Below, one piece after another: positions 17,694 through 39,184 of a DNA stretch of 64,000 nt (its first letter is position 1; each line of letters starts with the position of its first letter). This DNA comes from Lophium mytilinum (lineage: Eukaryota). Made by a program: the position numbers and the translations under genes. The notes below the pieces were generated by a model. That model worked only from the letters and a program-made list of their open reading frames with translations, was not told the origin of the DNA and ran no database searches. The stretch spans positions 124,001-188,000 of the forward strand of contig MU004190.1 in the NCBI GenBank assembly GCA_010093605.1. Direction: 5' to 3'.

Positions 17694-17856
17694 TATGAGG
17701 TCACATCGCGGTTCAATTTGCTCGAGTGATCGACCACGCCAAAAGGATAGACTGAAAGCAAACCGCAAGCATTGGATATATTAGCAACTCGTTCCTCTTC
17801 TATCATACCGAATCTCGAATCATCCCTGGGGCACAGACTTACAACGAGCGCTGAAT

Positions 17857-18666
17857 ATGAATGTACACACCTTGAACGAGCGCGGCGACGGCGTTGATTC
17901 GACGGAGCACCCATTGATTATCGGATACAATGCAGCTCTCCAAGACATACCAGGACTGAACACGGCCCCAAGGGCCCCACCGCTGTCCGGTATTCCCTTG
18001 ACGACGGCTGAGGTCTTCCGACCTTCTGCTGAAGCCGACACTCCAATAACCTTGTTCACGCATCACGCTTCAGAGCATACGATCCGCTATTGCCATCCCG
18101 GGGCACATCGCCTCGTTCGTCGCTTCGTCACCGATCCCAGGGAGATTCTCATTTACACAAGTGGCTCATGTTTTGACCAGAGGGATGCAACCGAGTCGCC
18201 CAAACTCATTGCCGGATGCGCCTTCGTCTACAAACCCCCTCCGTATCCGAAGACCAGCTGCCAGTTTCGGCTGGAAAATAGAGGCCCTACCGAGGTGCAC
18301 CCACTGACCAAAAGGCGTGCAGAGCTTCGGGCTGCGCTCGGAGCCCTTGCATTTCGTAAGTGGTCTGGAGAGGGCTGGCTAAAAGTTGTCATTGCTACAG
18401 ATTCAAACTACGTGGTTTTCGGTGCCACTGAAAAAATCGAGGATTGGGCTGAAGAGGGATGGAAGACTGAAGCCGATAGCCCGGTCGAAGATGTTGATTT
18501 GTGGAAGATGCTACTTGCCGAGATCAACACGTTGGCGGGCAACGGTGTTGAGGTAGCATTTTGGCGCATTCCTAGGGAGCTTAATCTAGCAGATAGCCCC
18601 GCGAAAGAGGCGGAGATGGGGGAGGAGAGGACTGAGTACAGTATGGTCATCGGAGTAGGCGTTTGA
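17857..18666 (+). CDS. RNase H1-like protein, first catalytic Asp replaced by Ser
   Basis: IYTSGSC (canonical YTDGxC), RAELRAA, IATDSNYVV.G, W...GWKT....V...DLW, FWRIPRELN.AD. Confidence 0.85.
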   Translation: MNVHTLNERGDGVDSTEHPLIIGYNAALQDIPGLNTAPRAPPLSGIPLTTAEVFRPSAEADTPITLFTHHASEHTIRYCHPGAHRLVRRFVTDPREILIYTSGSCFDQRDATESPKLIAGCAFVYKPPPYPKTSCQFRLENRGPTEVHPLTKRRAELRAALGALAFRKWSGEGWLKVVIATDSNYVVFGATEKIEDWAEEGWKTEADSPVEDVDLWKMLLAEINTLAGNGVEVAFWRIPRELNLADSPAKEAEMGEERTEYSMVIGVGV

Positions 18667-18974
18667 TGCATACTTTCTAGTCAACTGGGCTGGATGTTGT
18701 TTAAGGAAGGCATCGGATTTGTATCCTGCCCCAAGGGTCTAAGACTTCTCTATCCTAGATTGCACGTGTTGAGGACATTGCTGTAAGAAAGGAGTGTAGT
18801 CCTTGTTCACTCTCATTGGTCAGTGTAGGATTAGTCATTAGCGCTGTGCCTCAATGCTTCGTCTGCCGCAATTCAAGGCGTAACCCTTTCAACACACTTT
18901 CTCATCACAGATGCATATGTCTCGAGACTTTCAAAAACCCTAGAGCAATAATAAGTGATTTTTGAGGTACCAGA

Positions 18975-21374
18975 ATGTCACGACCGGCCCCCACGATGCC
19001 CCAGGCCCAGCCTAAGCCGCCACCCACGCCTGCTCTTCACCAGTACGCGTGTCTACGTTGTAGGTCACGCCGTGTAAAATGCGACAAAATCCTATTTGGA
19101 TGCGCGAACTGTTCTAGCCATGGGGCCCACTGTGTCTACTCGTCGCGTCGTCCCCGGAAGCCACAGAAGATTGCACAGGATCAAACGACGTCCCAAAGAC
19201 TGTTACTACCAGCGTCAACGTCTCCGTCGGTATCCCAGGGAACCATCGAATCTGAAGCGGACAATCTAGGCACTGAACTGGCGTTTGATCACACTTCGGT
19301 GGCTTCCGAGCATCAAAGTGATGATGAATGTGATGACGCCGTTCTTCCCCGGGAGCTGAACAACGCCGCGTTCAAGGTCAGGAACGATACCACCAATTCA
19401 GATCGTGGTAGATTGTTCGTCGGTCCGCAGGGGAAGTCCCGTTACATCAACGGTGAGAAGGTAAAGCAGGTAGCCTATCTCGAGACAGTCCTTTCAATTG
19501 AGCCGCGTGGAAACCAATACGAAACCGCGACGACAGTATCACCGAATCGGAACGACAGCTTGATTGCGACATCGTTATTGACTGCTTCATACGAGAAAAG
19601 AGATCTGCATATATGCCATCCATCTCCTGAGATTATGCATGTCCTTTGGGAATACTACTGTTGCAACGTAGATGTCATGGTGAAAGTGCTGTATAAGCCG
19701 GCCGTAGACACCTTAATCATGCGTGCTTCGAAAGACTTGTCTTCCGTCGACTCCGCTACTGAAGCGCCACTTCTCTTCGCGATTTGGTACGTCAGATTGC
19801 AAAAAGGATGTCTAGGGCGAGGGCATTACGTTCGTTCCGTGTTCGAGGTGCTAACTATTTGAATAGGCTTGCCACCGCTACGTCCATGTCCGCTGAAGAA
19901 TGCTGGAAATTACATGGAGAGAATAGAGGAGTGCTCATACGAAAATATCGATGCGCGCTCGAAGGCTCCCTTGCGGAAGCAGGATGGATGACTACTCAAG
20001 ATATCCTTGTTCTACAAAGCCTCACGCTATATCTGGTAGGCTATCTTCACTCCAATTCTCCGAAAATATTATTACCCAGTATCTGAAGGGCGCTTTGGAG
20101 TCCTATCATAATTCATTTGAGATATGACTAGCCGTAAAATGCTGCGGCGCCCTCTTATGCCATCCCTTTGATCCGAGGGATTTGTATCGACACCTACGGT
20201 CTGTATCTGACATTCTTAGGTTTTCGCTTCAGCGAACTCGCGTTCCACATGGATACTGAATGGGATTGCTCTCAGTCTTGCCCAAGCGATGGGTATGCAC
20301 TCGGATAGCTCGTCATTCTCTCTGGGCGCGATTGAGACCGAAGTCCGCCGCCGTATCTGGTGGGTACTGTGTCAAACAGATGTTCGCGTCTCAGAGAATT
20401 GCGGCCTTCAGTCTCATGTACCCTTCACTATGGACACAGAGCTTCCCATGAATATCAACGACTCGGACCTCATTTCAGCCAAAGAAAATCCCCTCATTTC
20501 ACGGAATCACTTCACGGAGATGTCGGTGAGCCTTGTCAAAATTGAAATGACCCGGACCAAGCTACAGTTCAATCGCTCCACGCTGAACAAAGAGGAGAAG
20601 GAAAGGCTAGTACAGGATCAGCTGCAAAGATACGAGGACACATATCTCAAGTACTACGATGGGCACTTGGAGCTCCACCGCCTCTATTATCTCGGAACTC
20701 GCCTTATAATGGCTAGAATTTGGAGAATGATGCATGATGCTACACACGACGGATCGGATGACGAAACACTTCAGGAGCCACTAATCTTATGGAATGCGGA
20801 CGTGCTAGAGATTGCGCATCAGTTACCATGTAAATACCGACAACATGGCTGGTTCTTCCGTTGTAAATATACGCAATGGCACGCCGCGGCCTATCTTTTG
20901 ATTCAAATGTGTAAACACACTCTAGGACCTGCCGTGGACCGCGCCTGGGAAGTTCTTGACGTCGCGTTCGCCGACTGGTATGAAGATCTCATCACACGGA
21001 GCCCGGAGGATTTCGGAAAGCTCAGCAATACCGTCAAGAACTTATGGCAGCCTTTGTTACGACTCCGTGAGCGTGCCCGGGATATCAGAAGACAAGCACT
21101 AGAATTACGACCACACTCAGTTTCGGCAGTTACACCTTCAATCCTCGGCACCGGACATGACACTAGCAACTCGACTCCTGAAAACCTTCCGCCGTCAATC
21201 CAACTAGAAGGTGGTGTGACAGGCGACCCCTTCTTTGGTTCGGTCGAAGATCTGTACAAGGAGATGAATTGGGAACAGTTTGATGATTGGGTGCAGAACT
21301 TTCAAGAAGGCCTCGACGAACAGAATCTGCAGTACAAAGACAAGGATGTGATCGGAGCTTTGAGTTGGTGGTAG
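18975..21374 (+). CDS. Zn(II)2Cys6 transcription factor with fungal TF middle homology region, 3 exons
   Basis: ACLRCRSRRVKCDKILFGCANCSSHGAHCVY. Introns 19787-19866 and 20036-20219 give WILNGIALSLAQAMGMH.D...ETEVRRRIWW. Confidence 0.9.
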
Positions 21375-21766
21375 TAAGAATGTGAATCAAAAGGTACAAC
21401 ATCTCCTAAAGTTGGACAGTCTGTGCAGCTTACGGAAACCCTCATCAGTGCTCGCTGTTTCGCTATTTCGCCCTTTTGCTGACCACTAAGAAATGCTGGA
21501 AAAACACGCTAGGTTAGTAGACGTAGCCGTGCATTTCTCAGCCGAGCATGAAGAAGGTTAGCGTGCTCGCTCTTTCGTGGCCAATCACAAGCCAGACGTA
21601 CTTCCACGATTTGCTCAAAAGCACCTCTAAGTATCAAGCCCATTGTCCATTCTTGTTAGAAGTACTCCTCGTAAGCATCCACTTGCCGACGACTGTCTTG
21701 GCGCATCAAAAGGAGCCGCATTCGACATTCCCGACCTCGGACATACTTGCGACCACAACAGTAACC

Positions 21767-23541
21767 ATGAGCACCGAAGATAAGCTCGAACCTTCCTCGC
21801 CTCCCTCAACCTCCCCATCACAATTAGAGGCCCGGGATGGTAGCGAGAAGGCTGTCGACCCAAATCTCATTGACTTTGACGGTCCGGACGATCCTTACAA
21901 TGCGCTCAATTGGCCCTTTGGTAAGAAAGTTAGGGTCACCTTGCTCTACAGCTTCTGTACTATGGGAGCGACGTGGGCAAGTACCGCGTTAGTCGTTCCC
22001 GAATTATACCTTTCTCTCATTTTGCTGACCCGTGCAACAGCTACAATTCTGGGATCGTGGAGATAGAGAAGCATTTCCATGTGAGCCAGGAGGTCGCGCT
22101 CCTGGGAATGTCACTGTACCTGTTCGGGTATGCTAAAAACCTCTATCATCTGATCCGACGTTCGAAGCTTATGTGGGGTTTAGCAATGCGTTTGGTCCTT
22201 TCCTCTGGGCACCAGTGTCCGAGGCTTACGGTCGCAAGCCTTCCATTTTGATCCCTCTCTTCGGCCTTACACTCTTCTCGTTCGCATCCGCTACCGCCAA
22301 AGACATCCAGACACTCTTTATCACTCGATTCTTCGGTGGTGTGTTTGGATCAGCTCCTCTTTGTAACACTGGTGGCGTCATAGCAGACATATGGCAACCG
22401 ACACATAGAGGCCCGGCGCTTCTTATGTGGGGTCTGTCGGTCATCATCGGACCACTGATTGCCCCCATCATTGGAGGCGCTTTAGTGATCAGTATGCCCA
22501 CCGTTGGCTGGAGATGGACCGAATACGTGAGTCCGCTTGCGAAAGAGCATCATGGATTGCTGGCTTATAAGCGTGTTGCCAGGTCACCGGTATCATTTTG
22601 GCCGTCGCCGTCTCTACCAGTAGCATTTGGGTAGACGAAAGCTACCCTCCCGTTCTTCTTGCGCGCAAAGCCAACCGCATTCGATTCGAAACCAAGAACT
22701 GGGCATTTCACTCCAAGAGCCAGGAGGCGGGAACATCGTTCAAGGAGCTGCTGCGCAAGTATTTCATCGTGCCGTTTGAGATGCTGGTAGACCCCATTGC
22801 CTTTATTATCAACATTTACGCTGCCTTTTGCTATGCTATTATTTACCTGTGCGTCACATTCATTTGCATCTTCGAATTGGCCTTGCTAATGATAATACAG
22901 CGCTATTCCAACTCTTCCTTACGAATTCAACCAAACCCGCCACTGGAACGCAGTAGTCGGAGCCACACCCTTTACGGCAATCATTATCGGAGTGATATTC
23001 TCGGCATTCGTAATCTTGTGGGGAGGAGTCTACTACAAGAAGCGTTTCATCGCCAATGGCAACAAGATCATTCCAGAAGCGCGCTTGCCACCCATGATGA
23101 TCGGATCAGTCTTCTTCGCCGCTGGACTATTCATCATGGCCTGGACTTCCAAAGCCAGTGTCCATTGGATAGGGTTCTGCGTTGGGTCTGCTTGCCTCGG
23201 TCTCGGCTTCTTCACGATCTTCCAGAGTTGTCTGGGCTACCTCGTCGACACGTACCTTGGGCTCGCCGCGAGCGCGATTGCAGCGAATTTGTTTATGAGA
23301 AGCATGCTCGCGGGCGCTTTCCCGCTGTTTTCTCACGCCTGTACGTAAAATTGAGATCCCGTAAGGTTGTGAGAAGGGCTAACGTGAGCCTACAGTATAC
23401 ACCAACCTTGGACTTGATTGGGGATTGAGCCTTCTCGGATTCTTGGCTGTGGCCATGCTGCCTATTCCATATGTGTTCTATATCTTCGGCAAGCGGATCC
23501 GCGCAGTGGGTAATCATTCGAATAAGACCTTTGTTCCTTAA
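21767..23541 (+). CDS. MFS transporter, DHA1 (drug:H+ antiporter) family, multi-exon
   Basis: FDGPDDPYNALNWP..KK, GP..WAPVSEAYGRK, RFFGGVFGSAP...GG.IADI, ESYPPVLL, PEARLPP, YLVDTY...AASAIAAN...RS..AGAFPLF, PIPYVFYIFGKRIR; several short introns. Confidence 0.92.
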
Positions 23542-24354
23542 GCGACGCGGTACTTTCGATGGTTGAATTCGATCTGATGGGGAGGAGATCATGCTTGTCG
23601 GAGGGAGTCTCTGTAGCTCTCCCAAGTAAACAATGGAATATCAGGTAGGCGAATAGTGGGGAAGGAGGCCACTTGATAATGCTTTACATTCTCCGGACCG
23701 AAGATGTGAGTCTAGAGCTCGTCGCTCTTTATTAGCTAGATTTGGGAAACACGCTCCATTCATTTATCATGCCGATTCTTTCTGGTGAAGTAGACTTTCT
23801 TCTGTCGATCTAGGATTCCAACGGCACTTCTCGGCCCGTGCCCTCTAATATGCCCTCTAGCTCTATGCAAGGGCTGGAACCGTCGCGTGCGCAGTTCTCA
23901 CTACAGATCGGATTGATTAATGACGAATTCTGGCTTGGCGAGGCTTGGCAGCCAGACGGGCTTCACTTTATGTGAACTCGCGTCGCTGCTCTCTTTCACC
24001 GTACATCACCGACTTCAAATTGAAGGTATGCTGTCCCGCAGGAACCACCCCGTCGGATCGAGAAGTAGAGTATCTGACTTGTGATTCAGATGCCATCCAG
24101 CAAATAGCCTACGGGCGACGAAGATCCAGGTATGTTCAACCCCCGAAAGGGACTTTTCTGTGCTTGTAGTTCACAGCATATAGGTGAAGCTTTCCGGCGA
24201 AGTAAGTGTCCATTAAGGTCGATCCTATCTTCTGCTAGACCTAACACCAACCAGTGGCGCGTGGAGAAGCGAGAGCGGGAGCAGCTGGTTAGTATACCCG
24301 GAAAAGACATTTGTCACTGGCACGATGCATGGCTAACTGTGTGGTATAGCCCTC

Positions 24355-25195
24355 ATGTACAGCAGGCAGGTAGGCACCTCGCTGCTTGATGACTGGGATA
24401 GTCTCAGCCTTGCGGAGTTGAAGAGATTGTTGGCGGGTATACGCCGTGATGCGCTATCGCTGAAGGCGATGGCAGCAACCCTTGCCTTCGCGTACCGCGC
24501 AAAGCACAACGTCAATGTTGGAATGCAGCTTTTACGCGGAGAGTTGTCGGAAGAGCAGGGTGTTCAGATGAGGGTGCCCATGAGTTTCGCGGAAGTTGAA
24601 GCCAGGAAGCATGGCTGGCGTCCGGGCGAGGTAAAGAAGCTTATCCGCTATCTTCTGTTCTATGGCCTCCGAACGTCGTTCCGAACCTATACTCGGAGCT
24701 ATCACCTCTCACAATAATACTGGTACTGACATGGTTGCATAGGGCAAGGTTGGGATGGGCGGGAATGATCCGCTCCAGTCACAGCGACATACAGCAGTGC
24801 CGCCGGGAGCGCCGCCTATGCTCTCGACTCAACACCGTGGTCGGCGGATCGCTGTTGAAGACGAAGACGAGAATACGGAGGTGGGGCAGGAGCCACCGAG
24901 GGTCTTCGAGTCGGAGCACTTTCGAGGGAAAAGGCACGGGAATGAGTGGCGAGAAGCTGAAGAGGACGAGCACGAGGAGGTGGCGCGCAAGTCTGAGGAG
25001 TCAAAGATGGAGCTGCAGCGATTGCGTCAATTGCTTCTAATACAGAAGAGGGAGAGGAAGGCGAAGGATGCCGAGGAGAATAGAAGGTGGAAGCTCATGC
25101 TTGAGCTTGCATACGGCCTGCGGGACGCTGAATACGGTTTCGCGAAGGCTGATTACTGGAAGCTCAAGCTTGAGGGGAAAACCGAAGGAGAGTGA
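24355..25195 (+). CDS. Hypothetical spliced protein with charged C-terminus (5' end uncertain)
   Basis: Intron 24631-24740 (GTAAAG..ACTGAC..TAG) joins ORF 24355 in frame to ORF 24755. Additional splice-like signals at 24130-24350. Confidence 0.4.
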
Positions 25196-25227
25196 GTATT
25201 GAGATGGTTTGCTCCTTCCAAAACGAT

Positions 25228-25400
25228 TTGCCCGCCGCTCCCAAGGCGGATTGTTCACTCATTTAGGTGTTTCCTACCCGCTCTCAAGGTGATTGCTCAT
25301 CCACCCGGGTGATTATTGCCCGCTCCTATGGCGGATTGCTCACCAATGTTGGTGATTCTTGCATTTTGCCCGCCCCCTTTGGTGGTTTTCTCGCCTTATG
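25228..25400. repeat. Degenerate ~42-bp tandem repeat (3-4 units)
   Basis: Recurrent CCCGCTC....GGCGGATTG(C/T)TCAC......GGTGATT. Confidence 0.6.
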
Positions 25401-25876
25401 GCGATGGGTATGAAACAATTCTTTTGCTTCAACGTTTCTCTCCGTGATTACTGCAATCATCTTCCCGTCTTCCCTTCAATCTTCCACATATCCCTCCCTC
25501 CGCCCGGCGAAGCAATCACTCAGAGCCCTCCATCGGTGACCGGGGCCCCATAATAGGCTAAACCATCGAGTGTAAGGTGTCGTAATGAAGAGAAGTGTAC
25601 TGAATATGAGTTGTCACCCAAAACGGGATCAAATCGAAGGCGATGCTCATCACGGCAACGTTACTGGCCGTACTGCATTGCTGCGTAAACTCGTAAGGTA
25701 AAGAGGCGAAGAGGAGACGTTGAAGTATGTCTCAAACACGGGAAGCCGATTTATCCATTCTTTCTGCCGAAAATTGAGGGAGATTAAGGAATGTTACTTG
25801 CCGCCAACGGCTCCATACGGAAAAAAAGTCTGCTAACAGTCCCAAACTCCACATATACCGAAACCACTCAACGCCA

Positions 25877-26896
25877 TTACCTCACCCACCTTTCCTTCCT
25901 CATCACCTCCCCCGTCCACCCATCCAACCTCTCCGCAAGCTCCCCATCCTTCGCCGCACTACTCTGCCACTTCGGCTCCCCAAACCGCCCAAAAATCTCA
26001 AAATACTCCCCGCACTGCTCCGCCTTCATATCCGCACTCGCGGCACAGAACAAACTAGTCCACGCCCCCTTATCAGCCGGTATCATCAACCTCAACTTGC
26101 GCGCGACGGAAAGAACGCTCCCAATCCCCCACCCCGACCCCACCGACGCCGCGAGGTTCGTCTCCACCATCCCCGGATGCACCGACGAAACCCAGATCTC
26201 GCCGTCCCCGTTGCGCGCACTGGGCGAGCCGGGGCCGTACGTCGTGTGCAGGGTCCTAGTGTGCAGAATGTTCGCAAGCTTGCTCTGGCCGTAGCGCGGC
26301 CACGGGCCGCTGTCCTTGAGCGACGGGTCCGCGAAGTTGATGCCGCCTTTGGGTGCGCTCAGGTGGCCTGAGGAGGAGAGGTTGACGATGCGCACGCTGC
26401 CGGGTGGGAGGGGTTTGGCAGTCCGCAGCATTAGAGGGAGCAGGCGCTCGGTTAGGACCCAGTGTGCGAGGTAGTTGGTTTGCCATTGGGCCTCGTGGCC
26501 GTCTTTGGTTATTTCGAAGGGGGTTGCCATGATGCCGGCGTTGTTGACTAGGCCGTGTAGGGTTGTTTCGAGGCTGAGGTAGTGATTGGTGGCGGCGACG
26601 ACGCTGGTGAGGTCCATGAGGTTCATTTGGAGGAGGGAGATGTTGGCGGTGGGGTATGCTTTTTTGATGTTGGCGATGGCTGCTGTGGCTTTCTCTGCGG
26701 AGCGGGCGCACATGTAGACGTGGGCGCCGTGTTCTGCTAGGTGGGCAACGGTGTAGTAGCCTCTGTGGTTTGATCAGATCAGCGATTTGGATTTCGTGGT
26801 GAGAGGGAGAGGGGACACTTACATGCCGGAATTCCCACCTGTGACTATGAATACCTTGCCCTTGAGATCGGGGAGAGTGTCGGGATGGAAAGTCAT
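25877..26896 (-). CDS. Short-chain dehydrogenase/reductase (retinol-DH/WWOX-like), 2 exons
   Basis: Intron 26763-26822 restores TGGNSGIG; NNAGIM, NLSS, YGQSK and VHPG.V.T motifs present. Confidence 0.92.
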
Positions 26897-27080
26897 ACTC
26901 AAAACGAGTACGTGAGTCAATGTGTGAAGGTAGAAATACCGAGAAGCAGGAATTAAAGGTCTTTGATTAAGTTGTGGGGCTTCAATGATACGAAAATATA
27001 GTTCAATAGGAGGTGGGCTAAGGTCTTTATACGGTATTGACCAATGTCGGAGATAGCCGTTAATCCGGGCATTTGATATC

Positions 27081-27564
27081 GTGAGCAAGCTGCATAACCC
27101 TAAGACCAATCACGTCTCCTTCAACTTGGACATTCTGTAAAGATGGACGAATAGGAGAAGGCGAGTGAGCCAGCTGCATGAAGCATGGGGCTGAGTGTCG
27201 CGTCTCTATCTCCTATTCAACTTAGCTATTCTACCCTTGCATGGGCGATCCCTTCGCAAGTCAGCTGCAACGGCTGGAGCCACTTTTGATCCAACCAAGC
27301 CTCGTTTTCTGAGCCAACAGGAGGCCGTCGTCCCTAGGGCAGCAGCTTTCAAGAGTGCACGAATTGAAGACTCCCAAAGGGGCATACGCTGGAGTTAGCG
27401 ATCCTAGTCCGCAATGTGAGCAGGCTGCATGATGCTAGACCTGCTCGAGTTAAACACTAGAAGAGTGACCAATGAAACCGTGCCGTTCCACTTCAAAAGA
27501 ACCCCTGCCTGGATTAGTCGGCGTATATTCCTCCGTTCCCGAGTATTGTGAGCAGGCTGCATAA
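27081..27564 (+). promoter_or_regulatory. Four copies of the 17-bp motif GTGAGCNNGCTGCATRA in the divergent SDR/TF promoter
   Basis: Copies at 27081-27097, 27165-27181, 27416-27432 and 27548-27564, all in the same orientation. Confidence 0.75.
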
Positions 27565-27658
27565 ACCGCCTTGGCCGGCCGGACGAAACTTGCCCTCATT
27601 CATCACCAAAATTATCACCAAATTCATCATCACCGCACTTCCAACGTCCGCTAGCATC

Positions 27659-28888
27659 ATGATTAGTACGTATCAGCCTGTAAATGCAACAGCACCACGC
27701 ATCCAACTCGCGTCGATGCCACAATTGGCCGAGGTACGTACCAGGCCGCCTTCAGCCTTGAAGACGACACGACTTGCTCACCGCATGCAGGCGATGAGAA
27801 AAGAAGACGACTGGACTGGGACCAAGGATGCTGCAGCACGTAGACGAGCACAAACTAGGCTTAACACAAGAGCGTACCGTAAGTAAGGCCTTCTTTTCTC
27901 CTTTACTAAAGTACCCTTTTCTCTTGTACTAAAGTGCTCTTTTCGCTTTCTACTAAAGAGCTCTTTTTACTACCTACTAAAGAGCTCTTTTTACTTTCTA
28001 CTAAAGAGCTTTTTTCGCTGTCTAATAAAGAGCTCTTTTCTCCTTTACTAAAGAGCTCTTTTCTCTAAAATCTTCTCTTAATTAGGAGTTAGGACTACTC
28101 TGATTAAGTGGTACCAAACTACCCAGACTAATAGTGCGGCAGGGAAACGCAAAGCCCCAGCAAAGAAAGTCGAAGCGTTGAGTACTGCAACCGGGACACT
28201 GATCAAATCAGAAGTGCTAGTGGAATGCTGGGACGTTGAGCAGCAAACCGTTTCTAGGATCCCAGCATCCTTTATCAACCAACTATATAATGCGAGAAAT
28301 GCATTATTACCAAACAAACCCAGAAAAGAGCAGTTCAACATTGTCTTCCCCCTCAGCTCAGACCACCTCATCACACTTCTCCAATACAACGCCCTTCGCG
28401 CCCTAGCCGTCAACCGTACTCTCATCTCGGGCATCCTCGTCACGCCGCTCGACTGTGATCAGGAAATTATCCACGTCATCCCCTACCCTACCAAACCCGA
28501 ACTACTGCCGTCAGCACTGCTACCCACTCCCCTTCAGCAAACGGTGCCGCACGGCGACTGGATCGACATGTTCCCCTACCCCGAGGGACGCGACCGCCTG
28601 ATCCGGGCCGCTGGTACCTTCGACGAGGACGAGCTGTGGGCCGACTGCATCGGCGGCCTGTACGAGGGCTTTCCCGACGACGAGGTCGAGCGGCGCGGCA
28701 TGATTGCGTGGTCGCCGCCCTGGGACATCTCGGGTTGGGAGATGTCGGAAGGCTTTCTGAGGAAATGGGGCTGGTTGTTTGAAGGGTTGCCGGCGGCGTT
28801 GGAGGCGACGAATCGGTGGCGGGTCGAGAGAGGCGAGGAGCCTTTCGTTCAAGATGAATGCATGGGCATGTCACGTGCAGCGGTCTGA
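27659..28888 (+). CDS. bZIP-like / DUF3425 transcription factor
   Basis: EDDWTG..D...RRRAQTRLNTRAYR|RKRK basic region across intron 27879-28142 (probable extra in-frame intron 27734-27790). C-terminal DHLITLLQYN..RA, LP.AL.PT.LQQTVPH..WID.FP.P..RD.LI, PWD..GWE.SEGF..KWGWL..G....ATNRWR..RGE.P. Confidence 0.88.
27891..28066. repeat. Intronic minisatellite, about 7 x 23-24 bp, with palindromic core AAAGAGCTCTTT
   Basis: Units of the form TACTAAAGAGCTCTTTT(C/T).... lie inside the 264-nt intron of the bZIP gene. Confidence 0.9.
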
Positions 28889-29715
28889 CATTGGTGTTGT
28901 CCGGCTACTCCTTCGTCATAGGCTAAGCTAGAAGTTCAAGCCATTGGACAGTATTATAACACCGAGATGCGAAACTCTGTTGAGCTCAAAAACGGGTTTG
29001 ACAATCGACAATTATATCGGGTCGAGACCGTGGTCGTGGCAGAACCGGAGGTGGAGGGCCAAGTATAACCGGACTTGGAGCCGCTGTATTGGGTCGCCTT
29101 AGATATGATGGATGACTTGGAATGAGTAGGGTTTAGGGTGGCTCTGTATTGGAGATGGGTTGTAGTGGAGTTTGACGATCACAGAACCGGGTCACGCCTT
29201 AAGAAGCTAGATGTGCTTAATGTCGGGAAGATGACCGAGAGTTCATGGCTCACCAACTTCAGCGACGGAAAAAGATACTTGGCAAAGCCACCTGTGCCTC
29301 TCGGCCGAAGGAATAGGTTTTAAGGGAGCCTTGGGAGTGGAAGGGGGACTGCCCTAATAATCAAGCCGTGCAGATGCAAGCTGGGATGTTACCGCGATAA
29401 TTTACAAGACCGCTACACAAAAATGCGCCCCCTCAGCCTTGCAGGAAGGCTGAACCCCGCTTTGCACTTTTTGCCTGGGTGTAAGATGACTCTTTCTTTT
29501 ACTCTTCAATGACTCTCGCCATGATCGTCGTCGGTGTGCAGTTATTCTACATCACCTCTATCGGCCGCTTTTACTTTCTCGCAGCGGCGACCAGTTCAGC
29601 CTTCCGACATCAGTCTCAAGTCGACGTTTACGTAATCTGAAAAGACGCAGACAGCTTTTTACGACACAGAGCGCTTTTCCGTATAGCCTCCCTTATCTCC
29701 GTTTCTGTACCAAGG

Positions 29716-31724
29716 ATGCGTCTACTCCATACATCCACTTTTGAGGTTAAAAGCTTCTTCGACCAAAACCTCCCCCCATACGCCATTCTGTCACACACCT
29801 GGGGAAATGAGGAAGTTACGCTTCGAGAACTGCAGCAAGAAACGACTGCAAGGTCGCTCCGATCTTTGAAGACACGCATTGTCCGTGAAGAAACCTTTGA
29901 GAGCATCGAATCAACGAAGAAGGGTTTTGTGAAGCTTGTGGGTTGCGCTTTGCAAGCTGAAAGGAATGGTTTCAGCTATATCTGGTGCGATGACTGCCTG
30001 GGAACGAAGGAGATGACCTAATAATGACTTCCCGTAGGTGCGATACCTGTTGTATCGACAAAACGAACAGCACTGAGCTGTCTGAAGCTATCAACTCCAT
30101 GTTCTATTGGTACAAGAACCAGCTCTGCTACGCCTACCTAGATGATGTTCCACATTCTCCCGGTGGAGTTTCATTGGAAGAAGACTCCGCGTTCGCAAGG
30201 AGTCGATGGTTCACGAGAGGCTGGACATTGCAAGAGCTTATTGCTCCTAGATCTGTGATATTTTTCGATGCGAGATGGCACCCAATGGGTAGTAGGTCAC
30301 AGTTTAGCGATTTCATATCAGACAAGACCGGGATTGATAGGTCAGTTCTCAATGGCCAAGATCCTGCGCTGTCCAGCATTGCCAAAAGGATGTCCTGGGC
30401 TTCTCGGCGACAGACAACGAGAATTGAAGATATGGCGTACTCCTTAATCGGACTGTTTGGAGTTAACATGCCACTGCTGTATGGGGAAAGGGAAAAGGCC
30501 TTCCTTCGACTACAAGAAGAGATCATGAAGGCGATCGAGGATCATTCATTGTTTGCTTGGAAGACACCAGCGCTTGGGTTCCTTGAAACAGGCAGTCTTC
30601 TTTATAGCGGCTTACTAGCGACCTCACCAGCGGACTTTGCAGAGTCTCGCAACATCCTCCCATTCCAACAGGAGATGGGCGACGGGATGGACGTCTCTCA
30701 GCCTCCATACTCAATGACCAATAAGGGTATAAGCATATCTTTGCCTATTCTACCATTAGCGCAGACATACAACAGGAATGGCATATCATATCCGATGTTC
30801 TTTGCCACTCTCGACTGTCACGACTCGACTGACACTAGAGGACCACTTGGGATATATCTAGGTGGTCATCAAGGATACTACCACAGATGTCACACTTACA
30901 GGCTCATTCCCGCGGGCACCCTCAACAAAGAAGCCTTAGGCGGGGTCCAGACTAGGAACATTTACGTCGAGCAACGCCGCACGACTATTAGCACGAAGAG
31001 CAGCGCATTGTATCATTTCTACATACCGGAAATACCTCAGGGCCTGCAGCAACACAATATCGTGACAAAGATGTTTGTGAATAGCCAAATTGCTTCCTGG
31101 GATCCCGAAAGCAGTGTGCTTTTCTGTTCAAGGGGCTTGGGGTGTGCAGTGTTCGTCGGGAATCATGAGGGTCGCGGCCGAGTCCTGCTAATTGGAATCG
31201 ACCCAGGATTGCGTGCTCGATGCGTCTTCGACCACGCGAATGAGACAATTAAAGTTATATACAAGTCGAAGAAAGGTGACGAGCTACGACCTGTCTGGTC
31301 GTTCTTTGACAACGAGCTCAAACTGGCTCCGGCACTTCTAGCGTACCGATTCGGATATACTGGGCTGGATGATTTTAATACGGGCCCAGAGGAGCACCTT
31401 TCATGGTTTTACAACAAATATTTCAAGAACACAGCTAGTTTAACCAGAGCCGAATTGGAGAGAAACAGAACGCGCTGGGACTCGTTGGAATATTCTGGTG
31501 ATGGGATGTCAACGAGTCTTGCGTTAGGGAATGCGCATGGTAAAGAGAGCCGGACTTCAAAATTCTATAATTCGAAAAGGAAAGAGCTCCAAGATCGAGC
31601 TGACTTGAGTATTAAGGTGGTGATTGGGGAGGAGTTAGTCAACGGTCGAATGATGTTCTCCGTTCGCTTCAACGTGGGCGAGAAGCAAGACGAGGAGCAA
31701 GAAAGGGTAGCGGAAGCTGCTTGA
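29716..31724 (+). CDS. HET-domain protein (HET-E N-terminal type), 2 exons, no NACHT
   Basis: MRLLH..PPYAILSHTWG. Intron 29985-30037 restores YIWCDTCCIDK..S.ELSEAINSMF.WY; also SRWFTRGWTLQELIAP, RMSWA..RQTTR.ED.AYSL.GLFGVNMPLLYGE..KAF.RLQEEI and GLLA.SP.DF. Confidence 0.92.
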
Positions 31725-31913
31725 GGCGGGAGACTGGGCGCGCGGAGAGGGTCTGGACGATGAAAATGGTGCGTCTCTCTAGGAGCCTGTTGTCACGTGC
31801 CTTCCACCTGCGCCTTACGTAATCTTCCTTTCTCTCGACTATAAACCGTCGCTCTTCTCCTACTTCCCGGATCTTTCAAGGGATCACCAAAGAACGCAAG
31901 GAAATGGAGAGGA

Positions 31914-32052
31914 GGAGATCAGGCCTAGATCTGACACCACTGCTGAGTGCATGTCGTTTCTGGAGATCAACTACAGGACTGACCCCGCTGTGTAAAGCGG
32001 ATGCCGTTTCTGGGGTATCAAATATGGATCTGACACCGCTGCTTAGTGGATG
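31914..32052. repeat. Diverged ~49-bp tandem repeat, about 3 units
   Basis: GGAGATCA...GATCTGACACC(A/G)CTGCT.AGTG.ATG(T/C)CGTTTCT units start at 31914, 31962 and 32012. Confidence 0.7.
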
Positions 32053-32669
32053 GCAACATCAAAATGGAGACGAATTCGGGCTCTCTTTCAAAGGGGATTT
32101 TTGAGGACGATGGGAGGAGGAGAGATCACATGGAAGAAGAAGATGGTGATGGTGGAAGTGGCGTGGTAAGGGTTTGTGGGAAGTGCTGATGATGTTCAAT
32201 GTTTCGCGAAGGTGGTGTTGGGAGCTTGAGAGACTGGCGATGGGGCCGATTAATCAGGTCTACTTACAAAGATGGAGGGAGGAACGGGATGGTGGTGAGC
32301 AGCACTAGTAGCATGGTGGCAAGCTCGCCTCTGTTTTAATCCCTCCAGGACATAACACTCTATCCAAGGTGTCAATCCCTAGTGCCGTGTTCTTGATGAC
32401 TTCTTTCTTACGGGATATCACGCGATGTAAGGCTTAAAATGCTAAAATGACACGTCAGAATTATCAATAGCATACAGTGCTAGCATGTCACATCCAGGTG
32501 CCCTCAACATAGCCCTTAGACAGAAACCAGCCTCAAAACTCAATATAATCTAACAGAAATATGCAGATATCAAAGACTCAGCACTTTACATTAGATATTT
32601 ACGCAGTCCAATACACAAACAAACCCTAACCCACCGAAAGCTCGCACATCAGAGATAATCAGGCTGACT

Positions 32670-35600
32670 CTACAACATAGCCACAGCGGCACCAAAAGCA
32701 CCCACAACAACCGCAACATCCCTTGCCACCTTCCCCGCACCACCGGTATACAGCGCCGGCGAGGCGGTTGTGTAACTCGCGCTGGGCTTCGAGACAGCGG
32801 CGCCAGTGCCGTAGCCAGTGCCGTACGCATAACCTGAAAAGGACGCTTCCACCGTGTTCGAGTAGTATGGCACAGGCGTGACCGCCACTGCTACGACTGA
32901 AGTCACACCGCTGGGATAAGGGCTGTACGCCGCCGCTGAAACCTCTGTATATGCCTCTCCGGTTGGAACAGGGGTGTATTCACACGGTACCACGGTGGTA
33001 TAGGCAGCGTAGATCTCGGTGGTCTTGGAGCCGTATGCGCAGTTCGTCACCAGCGGCGCGCACGTCGAGATCGTGTACGTAGTCGTTGAATAGACAGTCG
33101 ACACGGTGGAAACGGGATAAGCCGTTGTGTGGGCGATGACTTCGGTGGTTTTGGAGCCGTATGGACAGTTGGTGACGTAGGCTGCGCACTTGGAGATGGT
33201 GTAGGTTGTTGTGTAATATACTGTCTTGGTGGTGTAAGGGTACTTCTTCTCCACAGCGGTGGTATAGGTAGCCGGAGTAGGCTTGACGGGACAGTATGTG
33301 GTATACAAGCTTATGGTCTCGGTGGTTACTGATCCGTACGGGCAGTTCGTTACCGTTGGCGCGCACTTTGAAATCGGGTAGGTTTTCGTTGTGTATACTG
33401 TTGAGTAGGCGTATTCGACGGATGAGGGATATACAGGGGCGGCGGTGGTCGATACGCTCAGGGTCGGGTACTTAGTCAGAGCCGAGGAGTATGGTACTGC
33501 AGTAGAGCATGGTGTTCCGGAGGCGTATGGCACCCCCGAGGAGTATGGCACCCAAGAAGAGTATGGTACTACAGACGAGTACGGTACTCCAGTAGAGTAC
33601 GATACTCCAGTAGAGTATACAGTCCCTGAGGAGGAAGTGGCAATAGAAGAGGAGTTCCAGTATCCAGTTGTAGACGAGGAGGAAGGACTTCCGGAAACCG
33701 ATGTCGACAAAGACACACCCGTGCCCGAGCTGAAGCTGAAGCTTAAGCTTGAGCTGGAGCTTGAAGAAGTGATCGAGCCTAGAAGGTGGCCATACAAATA
33801 AGCATTTGTTCAAACGGCTACAAGAGACTAGATCTGTGTACGCTCGCCTGCTAAAGTCTGAAAGACTATACAACGCCTTCCAGCGTGTCAAAGCGATTGA
33901 CATCCAAAAATTTATAATGCTTTGGAGCATCTCGAACAGTGGCAAAAAAGAATACGTAGGAATGAATTCATCACACTACAAGTTCAAACGGAATTGTACT
34001 TACTCGAGGATGTCGTGGTGGAGGAGCTCGAGGAGCTAGCAACGGAAGAGCTGGAGGAGCTGGCGCTGGAGCTAGAGGTAGAGCTGGAGCTGGCCGTTGA
34101 GCTGGCTGTTGTGCTGGTACCGGAAGTGGCGCTGGAGCTGGAACTGGAGCTCGCGGACGATGACAAAGAAGCAGAAGAAGAAGACGACGTGGTCGTGGAG
34201 ATCGACAAGGAAGAAGTCGAAGAAGTCGGACTGCTCGAGGTAGTGGATGATGAAGTGGACGAGCTCGATGTCGATGCAGCGCAAGCACCGGTAACAGATG
34301 GAACCGCGTCGGGGCCCTTTTCAATAGCAACTAGCTCTGATCCACAGTCGTCCGTGTTGGCCAGAAGGAGGTTTTGATTATCTTGGTCATAGACAACATA
34401 TGCGCCTCGGAGGAATGAGTCGCCCAAAACGGGCGCATCATCTTCAGGAAGAAGACCAATGACGCAAAGAGTAGGATTTATAAACCAAATAAACTCATGG
34501 TAGGGGATATTGATGATCGTAGCTCCAAAGGTGAAGTCAACGGTGCCAGGTAGATCAGCGACAGAGCAGTCAACGATATAGAGCCCACTCCCTCCAGTGT
34601 CGAGGGTCGCGCCTGGGAAATCCGCCGCGACGGCATTGTAAATTGGTGTTGGAAGGCGGCTTAGAGTTCCCCCGCTGTCAAGGAAGACGGGGGTGGAGGA
34701 AGCAGGATAAGTCTTTGGGCTATCCCCTGGCTTGGTAATTCCTACCGCATCCATATTGATCCAGTAACTACATAGATGTCAGTAACAGCTTGCAATACTG
34801 TGATAAGTTTGGCAACAGACCGGTCGAAGTCATCAGGAGCGTCTTCAGCTGGAATGATTGGACATTTTTCCAAAGAACCTTTGTATTTCTTCGTATCAAT
34901 GCCACCAAATATGATGGCACCTAAAAATATTTAGTATAGATTGCCTGAGACGTCAAGCTATGTCTTACCGGCTGGAGCATTCACGGATCTCAGATCAAGA
35001 CTGAACGCGCGGCTGTTGGTGATGCCTTGATCAGCGAGCTGATCGATGATAGTCGGGTAGCCTGTCAGTTCGATTCCCGGTCCAACGCCCATCAACCCAG
35101 TAGGCATATCTGTAGAGTCACTTGCGACTGCAAATTGCTGAGCAATAACGGTAGCTCCTAGTTTAATGCGTCAATATCGCGGAACCCGAAGAGAATATAA
35201 AGAAGCAAGTGCCGCTTACCCCCGAGCAGGAAGTTGTCCGTATAGTACTCAACATCTGCAGATCCCTTCCCATATGATAGAGTGGTTGATTCGCCAGTGT
35301 CCTCTGCTGTTGAAGAAAGGTCTACTGTATATACAGGGTAAGAGTTGCAGAGATCGATACTGCTTTGCGGCCCTGCAGTAGAGCAATCGGGATCGACCCA
35401 TGTGTCGGATGAACCGGTATCAATTGAAACAGATACTGGTTGCGGCGGGGTTCCAATGGAGACTGTATAGTTAGTTATACCCTCTAGGGGCCACCCAAGA
35501 ACCACGTACTTACAAGTGACAACATATCGGGTACCGGTCTGAACATTTGCTAACGCAACAGCATCTTGTCTCTTGTGTTTACTAGGCAGCAGCTGAGTAG

Positions 35601-35718
35601 TATTCACTGCAGCGACAGAAAGCGCCAAGATACCGGAGCCCCGTTTGGTATTTGGGAGCGCTGAAGCAGAAGATAAGGGTGCCAAAGAAAGGCACAGAGT
35701 CAAAAGAGTGGACAGCAT
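32670..35718 (-). CDS. Secreted GPI-anchored aspartic protease (yapsin-like, A1) with long Ser/Thr stalk and Cys-containing repeats
   Basis: Signal peptide, IGTPPQ, DTGSSDTWV, LDSG, LGDSFLRGAYVVYD. Intron 33779-34003 joins the protease in frame to ORF 32670-33797, which has three TY.IS.CA..VTNC.YG repeats and a hydrophobic GPI-type tail. Confidence 0.88.
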
Positions 35719-37329
35719 GATTCCGGTTTAACGAAAGATCCAGAATCACACAAGAGAGTTAGGTGGAGAGCGAGCTGAGGGAAGAAGAATCTGGAAAGAG
35801 AACTGAGCTGATTTATGCCCGAAAGCATCTTGGCAAGACCACAGGAAGAAAAGCCTTGGGGCTGGATCAGGAGAGATCCAGGGAGCTTGTATTGATCACT
35901 CTTGGCATGCTGTATTCCTGCAGTCCAATAGTGTTGAAGCCTGATAGGACGAAGTGGAAGGTGGCGTCAAGAACTTCCTGATGGATCAAGATCCTCGATG
36001 TATACTGAATCCAGACATCTGAGTACATATAGACGCACCATACTGCCAAAAGAATATACACACTTGTAGTGAAGCCATAATATACATTATCGCAGTGTGT
36101 CCCTAGTAAAGAGGCCTTCGTAATGCACCTACACTGCTGGCTACAAGTCTTCCCATGAATTTGGCTTGAGGGTTCCAATGGCGGCTATATCCACTTGGCA
36201 GGTCGATTTCGGCAAGCCTCTCGTGTTCTTCCTCGCCGACTAAGGCAACTGCATGCTCAGCTGCACTTGTGGCTTTCCGGTGAAGAGCTTCGCCTCCACA
36301 TCTGCTAGCTTCTTTTGGCAGCCGTTGGCTTTCATGCTGCAGATGAGGTAATTTAGTGAGGTCAAGCGGATGCGGAGCAATAAGGCTGACGGTTCTATCG
36401 CTCCGCAGGTACACCCGTCAGGGGTGGGGGGTATGTGGTGGACTTTGTTCGCGATGGGGCTTTAACCATCGAGCGAATCATTATTCTCGCATTAGGCGCT
36501 TGTGATCTAGCAAGCGAACCTCGGGACTTTCCGCAATTTCTCTTATACGAGTGGGTGTGCAGCTGAGGAAGAAGCTGAGGTTGGAGCTGACCTAGCCGCT
36601 TCGCCGAGCGATTCGTGGCGATGCGCCACATCTCCCACAGCCCCAGAACAGCGCGCTATCCCCTAACACCCCCTGCAATTCCCCCAGATTCTTCTACGAA
36701 GCGCTTGAGAGATGCAACCAGGGTCTTATTTTGGCGTGTTCCATCTTTTGTGAAAGGCTAGGCCCTGAGTTCGGTGGCTACAGGTCTCAAGCTGTACCAA
36801 TTAAAGACTTCATTTTATGCCCTTTCATCTTCAACCAGCCTTACCACAGTCAGTTCGGCAGCTATCATCATGATTATCGATGTATTGGGACTGCAAACTC
36901 TTTCTCTACAGTCACTCACGTCTTGCCACCAGCTGAACAACGTGTTATGGTGCGAGATATTTTACAACCTGAAACTTTTCCAGGAAGCTCTACATCAGCC
37001 CACCGGCCCACGAGGCTCTTAACATAACACCCCATAAAACTTCAAGAGATGTAAACCTCTCTGCAGACTAATAGATCAGTTGAAGAATTTGAACGCGCAA
37101 AGTTTTCGATATCCGCTTACTGTTGGCCAACCTTCGACGCTAGAAGGGTATACAAATCCCTTTGCGTTCCCAATCGCCTCATACCTGGAATACGTTCATC
37201 ATCTCTACATCATACAACCTAAAGAGCGATAGCTTTCTCAATTCCTCTCAACTCCAGGGGAACAACCGTCCGAAACAAATGTTCTGATACTTGATAGTAG
37301 AAGTATTTGCTCGATTGCAACGTTAGAGC

Positions 37330-37701
37330 TTGCTTCTCGAACAACAATGCAACGAAGGCAGAAGCGCTAGGGTGCGGACCGAAACTTTAGAAGACGGATG
37401 GGCAATCTTGCACGACAGACGGCTTTACATGACGAACACGTACAAGAGCCTCGAGAGGTTTGCGGCACCAAACTCGCCACGGACTAAAGGCCTATTACGG
37501 GATTACCAAACACTCATATTATAGATTCAGCTTGTTCAAGCAGATCTACGAGATTACTTGAATCGCCACGTTGGGATGCCGGCACTGGAGAACAGCAGAA
37601 AAAGCAGTGGACCGGTGGTGAACATGGACAGGCTCACTAAGCTAGCGTTCGTCTTTATTTCTATTACTTTCGTCACTTCGAATCTTCTAGCTTACCCCTA
37701 G
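37330..37701 (+). pseudogene. CorA-like membrane protein C-terminal relic
   Basis: Reading through TAG 37522-37524 gives DYQTLIL*IQLVQADLRDYLNRHVGMPALENSRKS...RLTKLAFVFISITFVTS, resembling the fungal CorA-like stalk/TM1. The GMN motif and TM2 are absent. Confidence 0.55.
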
Positions 37702-39184
37702 TTCGCGTTAATTAGTGTTGATTAAACAAGACGAGGTGGAGCTGCCTCGAGGGATCCAGTTCACCGTAGCCAGCACTATTACCGCTCCAACTCGCCCAAC
37801 TGTAACTTAAGTCGCTCAGAGAATCGGGCGCGACACCTTTCCACAAAAGAGAGTGAAGCAAGTCCTCGTAACGAATAAATGACGCAGGCACAATTCAAGA
37901 GGCCGAGGGGGTAGCAGAAGAGAGCCCTCGCCAACGATCCCAATGGAAGACAATCCAAGTGACATTCTTCATGAAGAAGAAGAGGGTTGCTTGGGAGACC
38001 CGGCAGCCTGGCCACACCCCTCTCAGGGAAGCGGGCAAGCCCGCTGGAAACCATGGATACGGATTGCAGTAAGGCGAGTGCCGGTGCACTGGATACAAGA
38101 GAAGGATTCAATCGGCCTCTACGGGAATACAGAGAGCTGGTAGGTTGATAAGACAGTCACAAAGCAGCTTACCTAAAAGGTCCACGTGAAAAGGGAACAG
38201 ATACAGAAAATTGGCGCTCGGATTTCAGTTCGGTGACGCCGTCGGATCATATTTCGTATGGAGCCCAAGCAGGTTGTGTGCTTGCCAGGGTTGAATAGGA
38301 GGAAGAGAACTACTGGAGAGCTTTTAAGGATTTCAAGCTTCGCGTGTTACTGGCTTAGCAATTCAAATACATGTCAATGTACGTACATAGTTTTTTGGTT
38401 TCCTAGCTACCACCTATAGGGAACCTTTGTTTGTCGGGAGGTCTACCAATCTGACTGGACCATACAATTTCGAAGGTTGGTCTAGAGCCTAGAATCCACG
38501 AACTAGAACATCTGTACCAAGGTTACCTAGAGGCCAAGGCACATACTATTTATCCACCTGCCGAATATAGCTATCATGCCAAGTAAAGCGGCGAACAAGA
38601 AGTCCTAGCGAGAGATAAGCATCCGAGTCCCGGGATACAAATCCCGCGTCACCCTGCTGGTTCCAGCGTAGCGGGACCGCTTTAGTGGAGTTGCAGCTTC
38701 GGCATCTCCATCTTTGAATCCCTACACCACGCGCCCACGGCACCGTCGAGGAACCACGCGGGGAGCATGCACCGATCTGGCGGCTCTGACGACATCGAGA
38801 TCTAAACCACGCCCTTATCTTCGGGGGAATCAGTGATGGACCTGCTTGTCGGCCGGAGCCGCCATGCGCGATGATGGAATGCGCTACGATTCGTGTTGTA
38901 CGTGCAGCCTTGGAGCTGCATACAGCTTCGATTGCGAGTGGGGAGAGAGCCGCTACTGGCCAGGTACGACGATGAGGGGGGCACCGTGTCGATGGTCTAA
39001 CGCGGGATTCCGCGTTGTTGGTGCGAAGACAGGTACAGAGTCGCCGGGGGGAGCTGTCATGTATTTACTCGTGTCCTCCTCGTTTTCTCTTCTGCGCTCC
39101 CATAGACTCTCGTCTCCTCGTTTTGAGCTTCTCTAGTTGTGCCTTGCTTTAGTCGTTCAATTGAGCTCTCTCTCGTCTCTCACG

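Follow-up and report, generated by a model that had tools for sequence, protein, structure and literature searches.

In a 64-kb stretch of the Lophium mytilinum genome (contig MU004190.1, referred to in its full length as the window), four copies of a 17-bp motif, GTGAGCNNGCTGCATRA, lie between a short-chain dehydrogenase/reductase (SDR) gene and a divergently transcribed gene for a protein of the DUF3425 family, and their conservation in related loci is well beyond neutral expectation. Judging from this constraint, the four elements are very probably a protein-binding regulatory element of some kind. The adjacent DUF3425 regulator is the probable binder of the four sites and would thereby be autoregulatory. 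An earlier, sequence-only reading of the window had recognized both neighbors, and this assignment is borne out: an SDR (Pfam adh_short) and a DUF3425 protein (PF11905) are encoded divergently with the motif between them. The positions, strand, and sequences that it gave for the four copies were likewise reproduced (Table 1).

A repeated, conserved motif in a divergent promoter

Allowing for at most two mismatches, GTGAGCNNGCTGCATRA matches the 64 kb four times, and all four matches are these copies, compared to 0.35 expected; at least four matches were reached in none of 100 dinucleotide shuffles of the window. With a weight matrix derived from these copies, each of them obtains 26.3–27.9 bits, whereas the runner-up in the 64 kb on both strands reaches 14.1 bits. 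Thus, the candidate regulatory element is real and restricted to this one promoter in the window. The bias of picking a pattern post hoc was removed by a pattern-free control, in which we determined the largest family of non-overlapping 17-mers with at least 14/17 identity in the 763-nt stretch 26896–27658. The real stretch holds a family of four copies, whereas 257 of 300 dinucleotide shuffles gave one, 43 gave two, and none gave three or more. Other segments of the window with 17-mer families of equal size represent repeats in coding sequence, DNA of low complexity, or a tandem array.

In agreement with the earlier claim that the copies are dispersed and do not represent a tandem duplication, the flanks of the four copies are unrelated. 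Copies 1 and 4 share a longer stretch of 24 nt with 88% identity. A fifth, degenerate match at 27254–27269 (TCGCAAGTCAGCTGCA) was not counted, since it sits in a window-specific 160-nt insert, a 40-nt piece of which (27248–27287, spanning the match) is also present on a different contig of the assembly.

When metagenome contigs were scanned with the main exon of the regulator gene, 14 loci (L001–L014) were retrieved. Lack of the motif in orthologous promoters had been set beforehand as the outcome that would speak against a regulatory element; instead, the motif is found upstream of the regulator gene in 13 of the 14 loci, in two to four copies, always in the orientation of the regulator and at the same places. 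The fourteenth locus (L013) starts inside the regulator gene and comprises no upstream DNA. The SDR gene is divergent from the regulator gene in 10 of the 14 loci, and the other four contigs end before the main SDR exon. Outside the intergenic regions, ∼86 kb of locus DNA contain a single stray match with at most two mismatches (L001, position 8633).

When the intergenic regions of six close loci were aligned (synonymous divergence, dS, of 0.30–0.61 in the five measured), the motif columns were 90% identical vs. 52% for the other intergenic columns. Copies 2, 3, and 1 are the three most conserved 17-mers of the intergenic region and copy 4 ranks fifth; conservation amounts to 0.966 for copy 2, the top 17-mer, and copy 1 is 91% identical across seven aligned loci. 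None of 100000 random sets of four 17-mers reached the observed conservation. All four copies are also retained in L010 (with its near-copy L011), where the regulator shows 71% identity and dS is saturated (∼1.9–2.0). Here, the motif columns are 88% identical to the window vs. 31% for other intergenic DNA, and the copies were found anew by a pattern-free self-repeat search of L010 alone. In L014, whose regulator is 52% identical, two copies are kept, one near each gene. The conserved blocks never occur singly and never on the opposite strand in the intergenic regions of L010 and L014. As the sites are kept where synonymous sites are saturated, neutral persistence is disfavored.

The anatomy of the site was derived from 36 instances in ten lineages, leaving out the near-duplicates L004, L005, L006, and L011 as well as L013. 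Positions 1, 2, 4, and 6 (G, T, A, and C) and positions 11, 12, 14, and 15 (T, G, A, and T) are the same in all 36 instances. Position 3 is G in 34 and A in 2 of them, position 5 is G in 34, and position 13 is C in 35. More variation is seen at position 7 (A 27, C 9), position 8 (A 17, G 19), position 9 (G 32), position 10 (C 26, T 7, G 3), position 16 (G 26, A 10), and position 17 (A 30), and copy 3 carries T at position 10 in most relatives. The motif therefore contains two essentially invariant blocks, GTGAGC (positions 1–6) and TGCAT (positions 11–15), whose centers are ∼9.5 bp apart, so that both lie on one face of the helix. The sequence-only reading had described a quasi-palindromic AGC-NN-GCT core and a homodimer site. 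However, the right-hand GCT is present in only 26 of the 36 instances, neither GTGAGC nor TGCAT is the reverse complement of the other, and the orientation is the same in 36/36, which leaves a symmetric homodimer unsupported. Thus, the site is asymmetric and bipartite.

The proposed layout of two sites per gene is kept in the relatives, even in L003, L005, and L006, where 1.1 kb have been inserted between the pairs. An orthologue of copy 1 is present in all nine other tabulated lineages; its distance to the SDR start, measurable in eight lineages, is 170–222 nt. Of the seven lineages with an assigned copy 4, six have it 82–101 nt from the start of the regulator, and L003 has it 33 nt away. A TATAAAG on the SDR strand, which is kept in the close group and lies ∼50 nt downstream of copy 1 in the direction of SDR transcription, may represent the SDR core promoter. 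Since inserts part the two pairs while the coding frames stay open in those checked (L003 and the window), each gene seems to have its own pair of sites.

The center of the promoter accepts insertions of different kinds: 160 nt in the window and 1.1 kb of AT-rich DNA with no notable reading frames in L003 (2250–3470), L005, and L006. CCAAT boxes near the copies were considered as part of the element and rejected, as they are kept only in the close group and are absent at the aligned places of L010. In L007, a deletion (3588–3690) removed copy 4 together with the adjacent CCAAT box, and the start codon of the regulator reads ATA (3688). The main exon is still open, and this gene could be a decaying or re-started copy.

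Table 1. Position and strand of the motif copies, the genes, and the cassette in the window.
Feature	Coordinates	Strand	Description
Motif copy 1	27081..27097	+	GTGAGCAAGCTGCATAA; upstream of the SDR start codon, ∼185 nt away
Motif copy 2	27165..27181	+	GTGAGCCAGCTGCATGA; upstream of the SDR start codon, ∼270 nt away
Motif copy 3	27416..27432	+	GTGAGCAGGCTGCATGA; 227 nt upstream of the regulator start codon
Motif copy 4	27548..27564	+	GTGAGCAGGCTGCATAA; 95 nt upstream of the regulator start codon
Bidirectional promoter	26897..27658	.	SDR-strand TATAAAG near 27027-27033; variable center, 27226-27388 specific to the window
Classical SDR gene, 319 aa	25877..26896	-	Exons 26823-26896 and 25877-26762; 60-nt intron 26763-26822; start codon 26896-26894
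DUF3425 regulator gene, 302 aa	27659..28888	+	Exons 27659-27733, 27791-27878, and 28143-28888; bZIP-like basic region RRRAQTRLNTRAYRKRK
Conserved two-gene cassette, 3.1 kb	25857..28963	.	blastn vs. 14 loci and alignments of the ends; similarity stops at both ends

The DUF3425 regulator as candidate binder

The sequence-only reading regarded the motif as a site for the adjacent DUF3425 protein in a putative sensor/detox switch. Of this claim, the choice of protein is supported, as known sites of the family and the match with the basic region make it the best candidate binder, whereas the symmetric homodimer mode is not. The accompanying remark that no motif is defined for this family of transcription factors is outdated. 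A7370 from Curvularia lunata, a DUF3425 protein resembling basic leucine zipper (bZIP) factors, binds ACGGCTGAC according to chromatin immunoprecipitation sequencing, truncations in an electrophoretic mobility shift assay (EMSA), and a point mutant described in the available text of PMC13113314. AfXanC from Aspergillus fumigatus acts through AGTCAGCA, as indicated by MEME on the promoters of neighboring genes and by promoter mutation in the available text of PMC8406171. GTGAGC, the left block of our motif, is one substitution away from GTCAGC, the core common to AGTCAGCA and to the reverse complement of ACGGCTGAC.

The likeness to A7370 extends to the same Pfam domain and a short promoter element (PMC13113314, available text), and the reverse complement of its site, GTCAGCCGT, has GT-AGCC in common with copy 2 (GTGAGCCAG), while the third base differs. 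The two cases are likened by domain and site, not by protein sequence. In contrast to our locus, the A7370 target is a distant pathway regulator, cuaF, with a single 9-bp site 1.4–3.2 kb upstream, and the available text of that paper mentions neither a TGCAT block nor repeated sites nor a divergently transcribed partner (PMC13113314). AfXanC is annotated as a bZIP protein and has a conserved basic region without the typical leucines of a zipper (PMC8406171, available text), and GTCAGCA in its site is one substitution from GTGAGCA. Its targets, however, belong to a biosynthetic cluster, and its own promoter lacks the motif according to the same text (PMC8406171).

The basic region of the regulator and the motif also show matching invariance and, in one locus, a joint change. 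The basic-region core QTRLNTRAYRKRK is invariant in all 48 homologues with gene models covering that region, yet these homologues are overall only ∼80% identical. It is identical at every locus with GTGAGC, including L010. Only L014 deviates in its basic region (RRKRQNRLNVRAYSK), and both of its sites read GTAAGC. Moreover, the two genes with their promoter form a conserved cassette (Table 1) that keeps the promoter sites while its flanks differ, which favors a binder encoded within the cassette.

Under the mechanism that we propose, the bZIP-like basic region of the regulator would bind the four elements, with GTGAGC serving as a half-site of the family type and TGCAT(G/A)A, one helical turn off, being read by a second subunit or a partner protein. 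Both blocks could be covered either by a dimer held together by the C-terminal domain or with the help of a partner protein. Through the two sites upstream of each core promoter, the regulator would control the SDR gene as well as its own gene. A signal, presumably a small molecule or stress, would alter regulator activity, and whether this raises or lowers expression is equally conjectural. The SDR would act on the relevant or inducing compound, a putative substrate, as an NADPH-type carbonyl reductase; we assume NADPH from the Arg after beta-strand 2.

Several points weigh against this assignment. bZIP proteins are characterized by a basic region with N-x7-R/K followed by a heptad leucine zipper. 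Neither a profile match nor the invariant Asn with a heptad zipper was found in the regulator (P0001): hmmscan at E≤10 returns PF11905 alone and no Pfam bZIP match, the basic region AQTRLNTRAYRKRK has a Thr at the place of the invariant Asn, and the predicted helix (residues 39–70) ends ∼12 residues past the basic region. The TGCAT block has no counterpart in the known sites of DUF3425 factors. We estimate a chance of ∼1–2% for an invariant block to resemble GTCAGC to within one base, so that this resemblance is supportive and not compelling. The covariation of motif and basic region comes from a single divergent locus, L014. As the close loci are mutually related, about three independent lineages bear the argument from conservation, and the sites are not all indispensable, since L007 has lost copy 4, L009 carries a degenerate version of it, and L014 makes do with two sites. 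AfXanC is a putative DUF3425 member, and “DUF” appears zero times in its paper. A7370 is a weak binder (dissociation constant 10.6 uM) and acts on a distant gene (PMC13113314, available text), and the AfXanC motif is missing from the xanC promoter itself (PMC8406171, available text). Thus, these two cases offer no precedent for autoregulation.

A host-encoded factor of another kind, e.g., a stress-responsive bZIP, zinc-cluster, or basic helix-loop-helix protein, could bind the elements instead and leave the DUF3425 gene as a co-regulated target. Conservation and promoter position reveal constrained DNA and not the identity of a protein, TGCAT(G/A)A is unlike anything known for DUF3425 factors, the regulator has no recognizable bZIP domain or zipper, and copy 2 includes an E-box-like CAGCTG. 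However, the other three copies lack CAGCTG, and the motif is limited to this promoter in 64 kb, with the one stray match outside the intergenic regions of the 14 loci. Given the unrelated neighborhoods and apparently several fungal classes, a factor of the host would need to occur universally with constant specificity, and the GTAAGC variant in L014 coincides with an altered basic region. The 17-mer is not known to match any fungal consensus. We therefore regard a host factor as possible but rather unlikely.

Much less probable is a role of the element in RNA or in the form of short upstream reading frames. Each copy contains a minus-strand ATG (MQLAH or MQPAH), which is invariant since TGCAT is invariant, and in the window, where copies 1 and 2 lie 84 nt apart and copies 3 and 4 lie 132 nt apart (both divisible by three), open frames connect copy 2 to copy 1 and copy 4 to copy 3. 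In the relatives, however, the spacing between copies 1 and 2 is 92, 93, 94, 51, or 48 nt and the frame relation is not conserved; we thus consider the in-frame arrangement of the minus-strand reading frames a coincidence. On the plus strand, the frame reading EQAA or EPAA meets stop codons directly upstream of copies 1 and 2 with no ATG between. For five of six 37-nt segments folded around the copies, the result does not surpass that of shuffles, and no consistent hairpin emerges. No Rfam family was detected at threshold, and no long inverted or direct repeats surround the copies.

That the copies are functionless neutral remnants of small duplications or of a dispersed repeat, as their single orientation, the 24 nt common to copies 1 and 4, and the repeat insertions taken up by the intergenic region might suggest, is hardly credible given their persistence in L010 at saturated dS amid flanking intergenic DNA of 31% identity, their ranks of 1–3 and 5 among the region's most conserved 17-mers, their unrelated flanks, and the lack of further copies in the window.

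The DUF3425 regulator, which we favor as the binder, matches PF11905 with an E value of 1.3e-17 (63.6–64.5 bits vs. a Pfam gathering cut-off of 27.1) and is identical to the L. mytilinum database protein P0001. At the place of the bZIP-type Asn, the consensus of the wider DUF3425 family reads QNRLN, whereas the native sequence here is QTRLN, and the Thr is a distinctive trait of this orthogroup. Fold models reach a pLDDT of 82.8 for the whole protein and 84.7 for residues 75–302. No solved structural relative was detected by Foldseek (best E values 2.8 and 3.6), and the best Z from VIA-align was 4.3, limited to the long helix, or 3.1 when the domain was used by itself. The models thus speak neither for nor against a putative ligand pocket, or the idea of a ligand sensor, in the C-terminal domain. 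A structure prediction with two copies of the regulator scored 0.01 vs. a mark of 0.32, in a comparison that did not include controls.

A protein atlas search with the regulator retrieved DUF3425 clusters only, and 1724 relatives were found at E≤0.001 among 1.84 billion representative proteins. The basic region is missing from 72 of the 120 homologues listed from databases, apparently due to a mis-modeled intron 2; the gene model of the homologue P0028, for example, translates this intron. The remaining models without the basic region appear to have a late start or a truncation. The DNA-binding part is therefore widely absent from database entries.

The two genes and their possible spread as a cassette

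The SDR translation is 100% identical to the database protein P0271 and matches adh_short with an E value of 1.6e-18. Classical SDR proteins are recognized by a Rossmann TGxxxGxG motif, NNAG, and a catalytic Ser-Tyr-Lys triad, and the translation shows TGGNSGIG (across the splice), NNAG, SSSG, and YGQSK. A sequence search against solved structures gave one distant match, the uncharacterized 3rd5. Removal of the SDR intron is observed in a contig from a run of a relative (90–95% alike), which joins 26762 to 26823. The same run joins 27878 to 28143, i.e., it lacks intron 2 of the regulator gene, and a loose end shows that intron 1 is excised. As spliced contigs of both genes co-occur in this one run, both genes are transcribed and spliced as modeled, at least in that relative. 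The intergenic region was not covered in RNA run X3, which says nothing on transcription starts. Intron 2 of the window's regulator gene (27879–28142; 264 nt) is filled by a 24-nt minisatellite at 27892–28066 with 7.4 copies of the unit TCTTTTCTCTTTCTACTAAAGAGC. It is absent from all related loci, and its unit holds a branch-point-like CTACTAAAG.

Similarity of the window to every locus is limited to the stretch from ∼20 nt beyond the SDR stop codon to 75 nt beyond the regulator stop codon. Identity to most of the close loci is ∼80–87% in the genes and 74–81% in the alignable intergenic parts. The flanks are unrelated between loci, with FAD-binding, zinc-cluster, and HET genes in L001, an amidase gene in L002, a HET gene in L010, and an Mso1-like gene and a DDE transposase gene in L007. 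Homologues of both proteins with 72–87% identity are found in what we take, from general taxonomy, to be Sordariomycetes, Eurotiomycetes, Leotiomycetes, Dothideomycetes, and Lecanoromycetes, as well as in one Lipomyces-labeled assembly. The two genes have consecutive locus tags in five named genomes from three classes (Xylaria multiplex, Conoideocrella luteorostrata, Penicillium cataractarum, Penicillium hispanicum, and Cadophora sp.).

For a tree of the regulator, we used 59 named homologues of the 120 listed, leaving out 61 entries (unnamed metagenome proteins, a partial protein from a metagenome-assembled genome, and a near-duplicate). The tree is star-like with groups at the genus level only, and class labels require 15 changes where the minimum is 4; nevertheless, the labels cluster more than after shuffling (mean 22.1 changes; none of 200 shuffles as low). 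The mean identity of the regulator is 0.80 within Xylaria, 0.80 within Penicillium, 0.79 between these genera, and 0.79 between classes. A plateau set by constraint does not explain these flat values, since true orthologues are found at 71% (L010) and 52% (L014). In L007, the best named relatives of the flank gene belong to Chaetothyriales and other Eurotiomycetes, and the cassette has a dS of only 0.32–0.47 to that of the window, whose regulator is a protein of the Dothideomycete L. mytilinum. Taken together, the comparison of these sequences, in which the named genomes are represented by their proteins, tips slightly toward horizontal spread of the cassette.

Signs of a mobile element were not found: no repeats of at least 30 nt flank the cassette within 18000–38000, and its end alignments show neither terminal repeats nor target duplications. 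The base composition of the cassette is no different from its surroundings, and a scan of prokaryote genome contigs gave no stray fungal copies. As a whole, the view that the SDR, the DUF3425 regulator, and the four sites make up a 3.1-kb cassette that regulates itself and has moved horizontally between classes of filamentous ascomycetes is tentative, and we hold it to be doubtful in this combined form.

The remaining genes of the window encode HET domains, a zinc-cluster factor, GH5, an aspartyl protease, and ankyrin repeats, i.e., ordinary content of filamentous ascomycetes, and no polyketide or peptide synthetase is present in the 64 kb. The SDR and regulator genes are thus a two-gene unit and not part of an obvious biosynthetic cluster. 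HET-domain (heterokaryon incompatibility) genes lie at 8825–10825, 29641–31724, and 60753–62882 of the window as well as at 6469–8346 of L001 and 4943–7852 of L010, and one of them directly follows the cassette downstream in the window, L001, and L010. Their frequency may only reflect a variable, accessory region of the genome. An RNase H reading frame (17785–18666; Pfam RNase_H, E value 4.5e-13) ∼7 kb from the cassette is possibly the remnant of a retroelement.

Known counterparts and implications

Several sites of one activator in a divergent promoter are found in yeast GAL1-GAL10, with four Gal4 sites, and in Aspergillus niiA-niaD. As proposed for our locus, a repeated motif in a common intergenic region drives two divergent genes. 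These systems differ from our locus in that their factor is the product of a gene located elsewhere and binds symmetric zinc-cluster sites, whereas here the candidate factor is a product of the pair itself and the motif is asymmetric. In bacterial divergons such as tetR-tetA and the LysR-type pairs, a regulator and an enzyme or pump are transcribed divergently from a common operator. Our locus resembles these in that the regulator adjoins its target, the sites lie in common intergenic DNA, autoregulation is probable, and the unit is portable; it differs in being eukaryotic, with introns in both genes, an unrelated protein family, and sites up to ∼270 nt from the start codons.

A looser precedent is provided by the salicylate-induced genes AN2114–AN2118 of Aspergillus nidulans, where a DUF3425 gene next to genes for an NAD-dependent epimerase/dehydratase and catabolic enzymes is upregulated jointly with these neighbors, i.e., co-induced with enzymes by an aromatic compound (PMC7842363, available text). 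This group, however, comprises four genes, no motif is reported for it in that text (PMC7842363), and a relation at the level of the orthogroup is not implied. The locus resembles the site set of a cluster-specific factor in a divergent promoter as well as a bacterial divergon, and it belongs neither to a defined bZIP family nor to the class of palindromic sites. We found no description of the motif, its bipartite form, the four-copy layout, the link to the orthogroup, or the cassette in the available text of the DUF3425-related literature, supplements aside.

If the regulator binds its own promoter, the two genes would represent a minimal autoregulated module whose inducer and substrate can be searched for. 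If the view of a spreading cassette is true as well, the cassette would work wherever it lands by means of its own regulator and sites and would be a eukaryotic counterpart of a mobile bacterial divergon. Given its sharp boundaries and a similarity that ignores taxonomy, the cassette lends itself to studies of how an entire regulatory unit might be transferred horizontally between fungi. The fungus-specific DUF3425 family of regulators is large and almost uncharacterized, and the literature searched attributes DNA sites to two members or putative members only. With a longer, bipartite site, four conserved copies, an invariant basic region, and one variant pair of GTAAGC and a changed basic region, the locus is a natural test case at which the recognition rules of DUF3425 factors are directly testable by EMSA or DNA affinity purification sequencing (DAP-seq).

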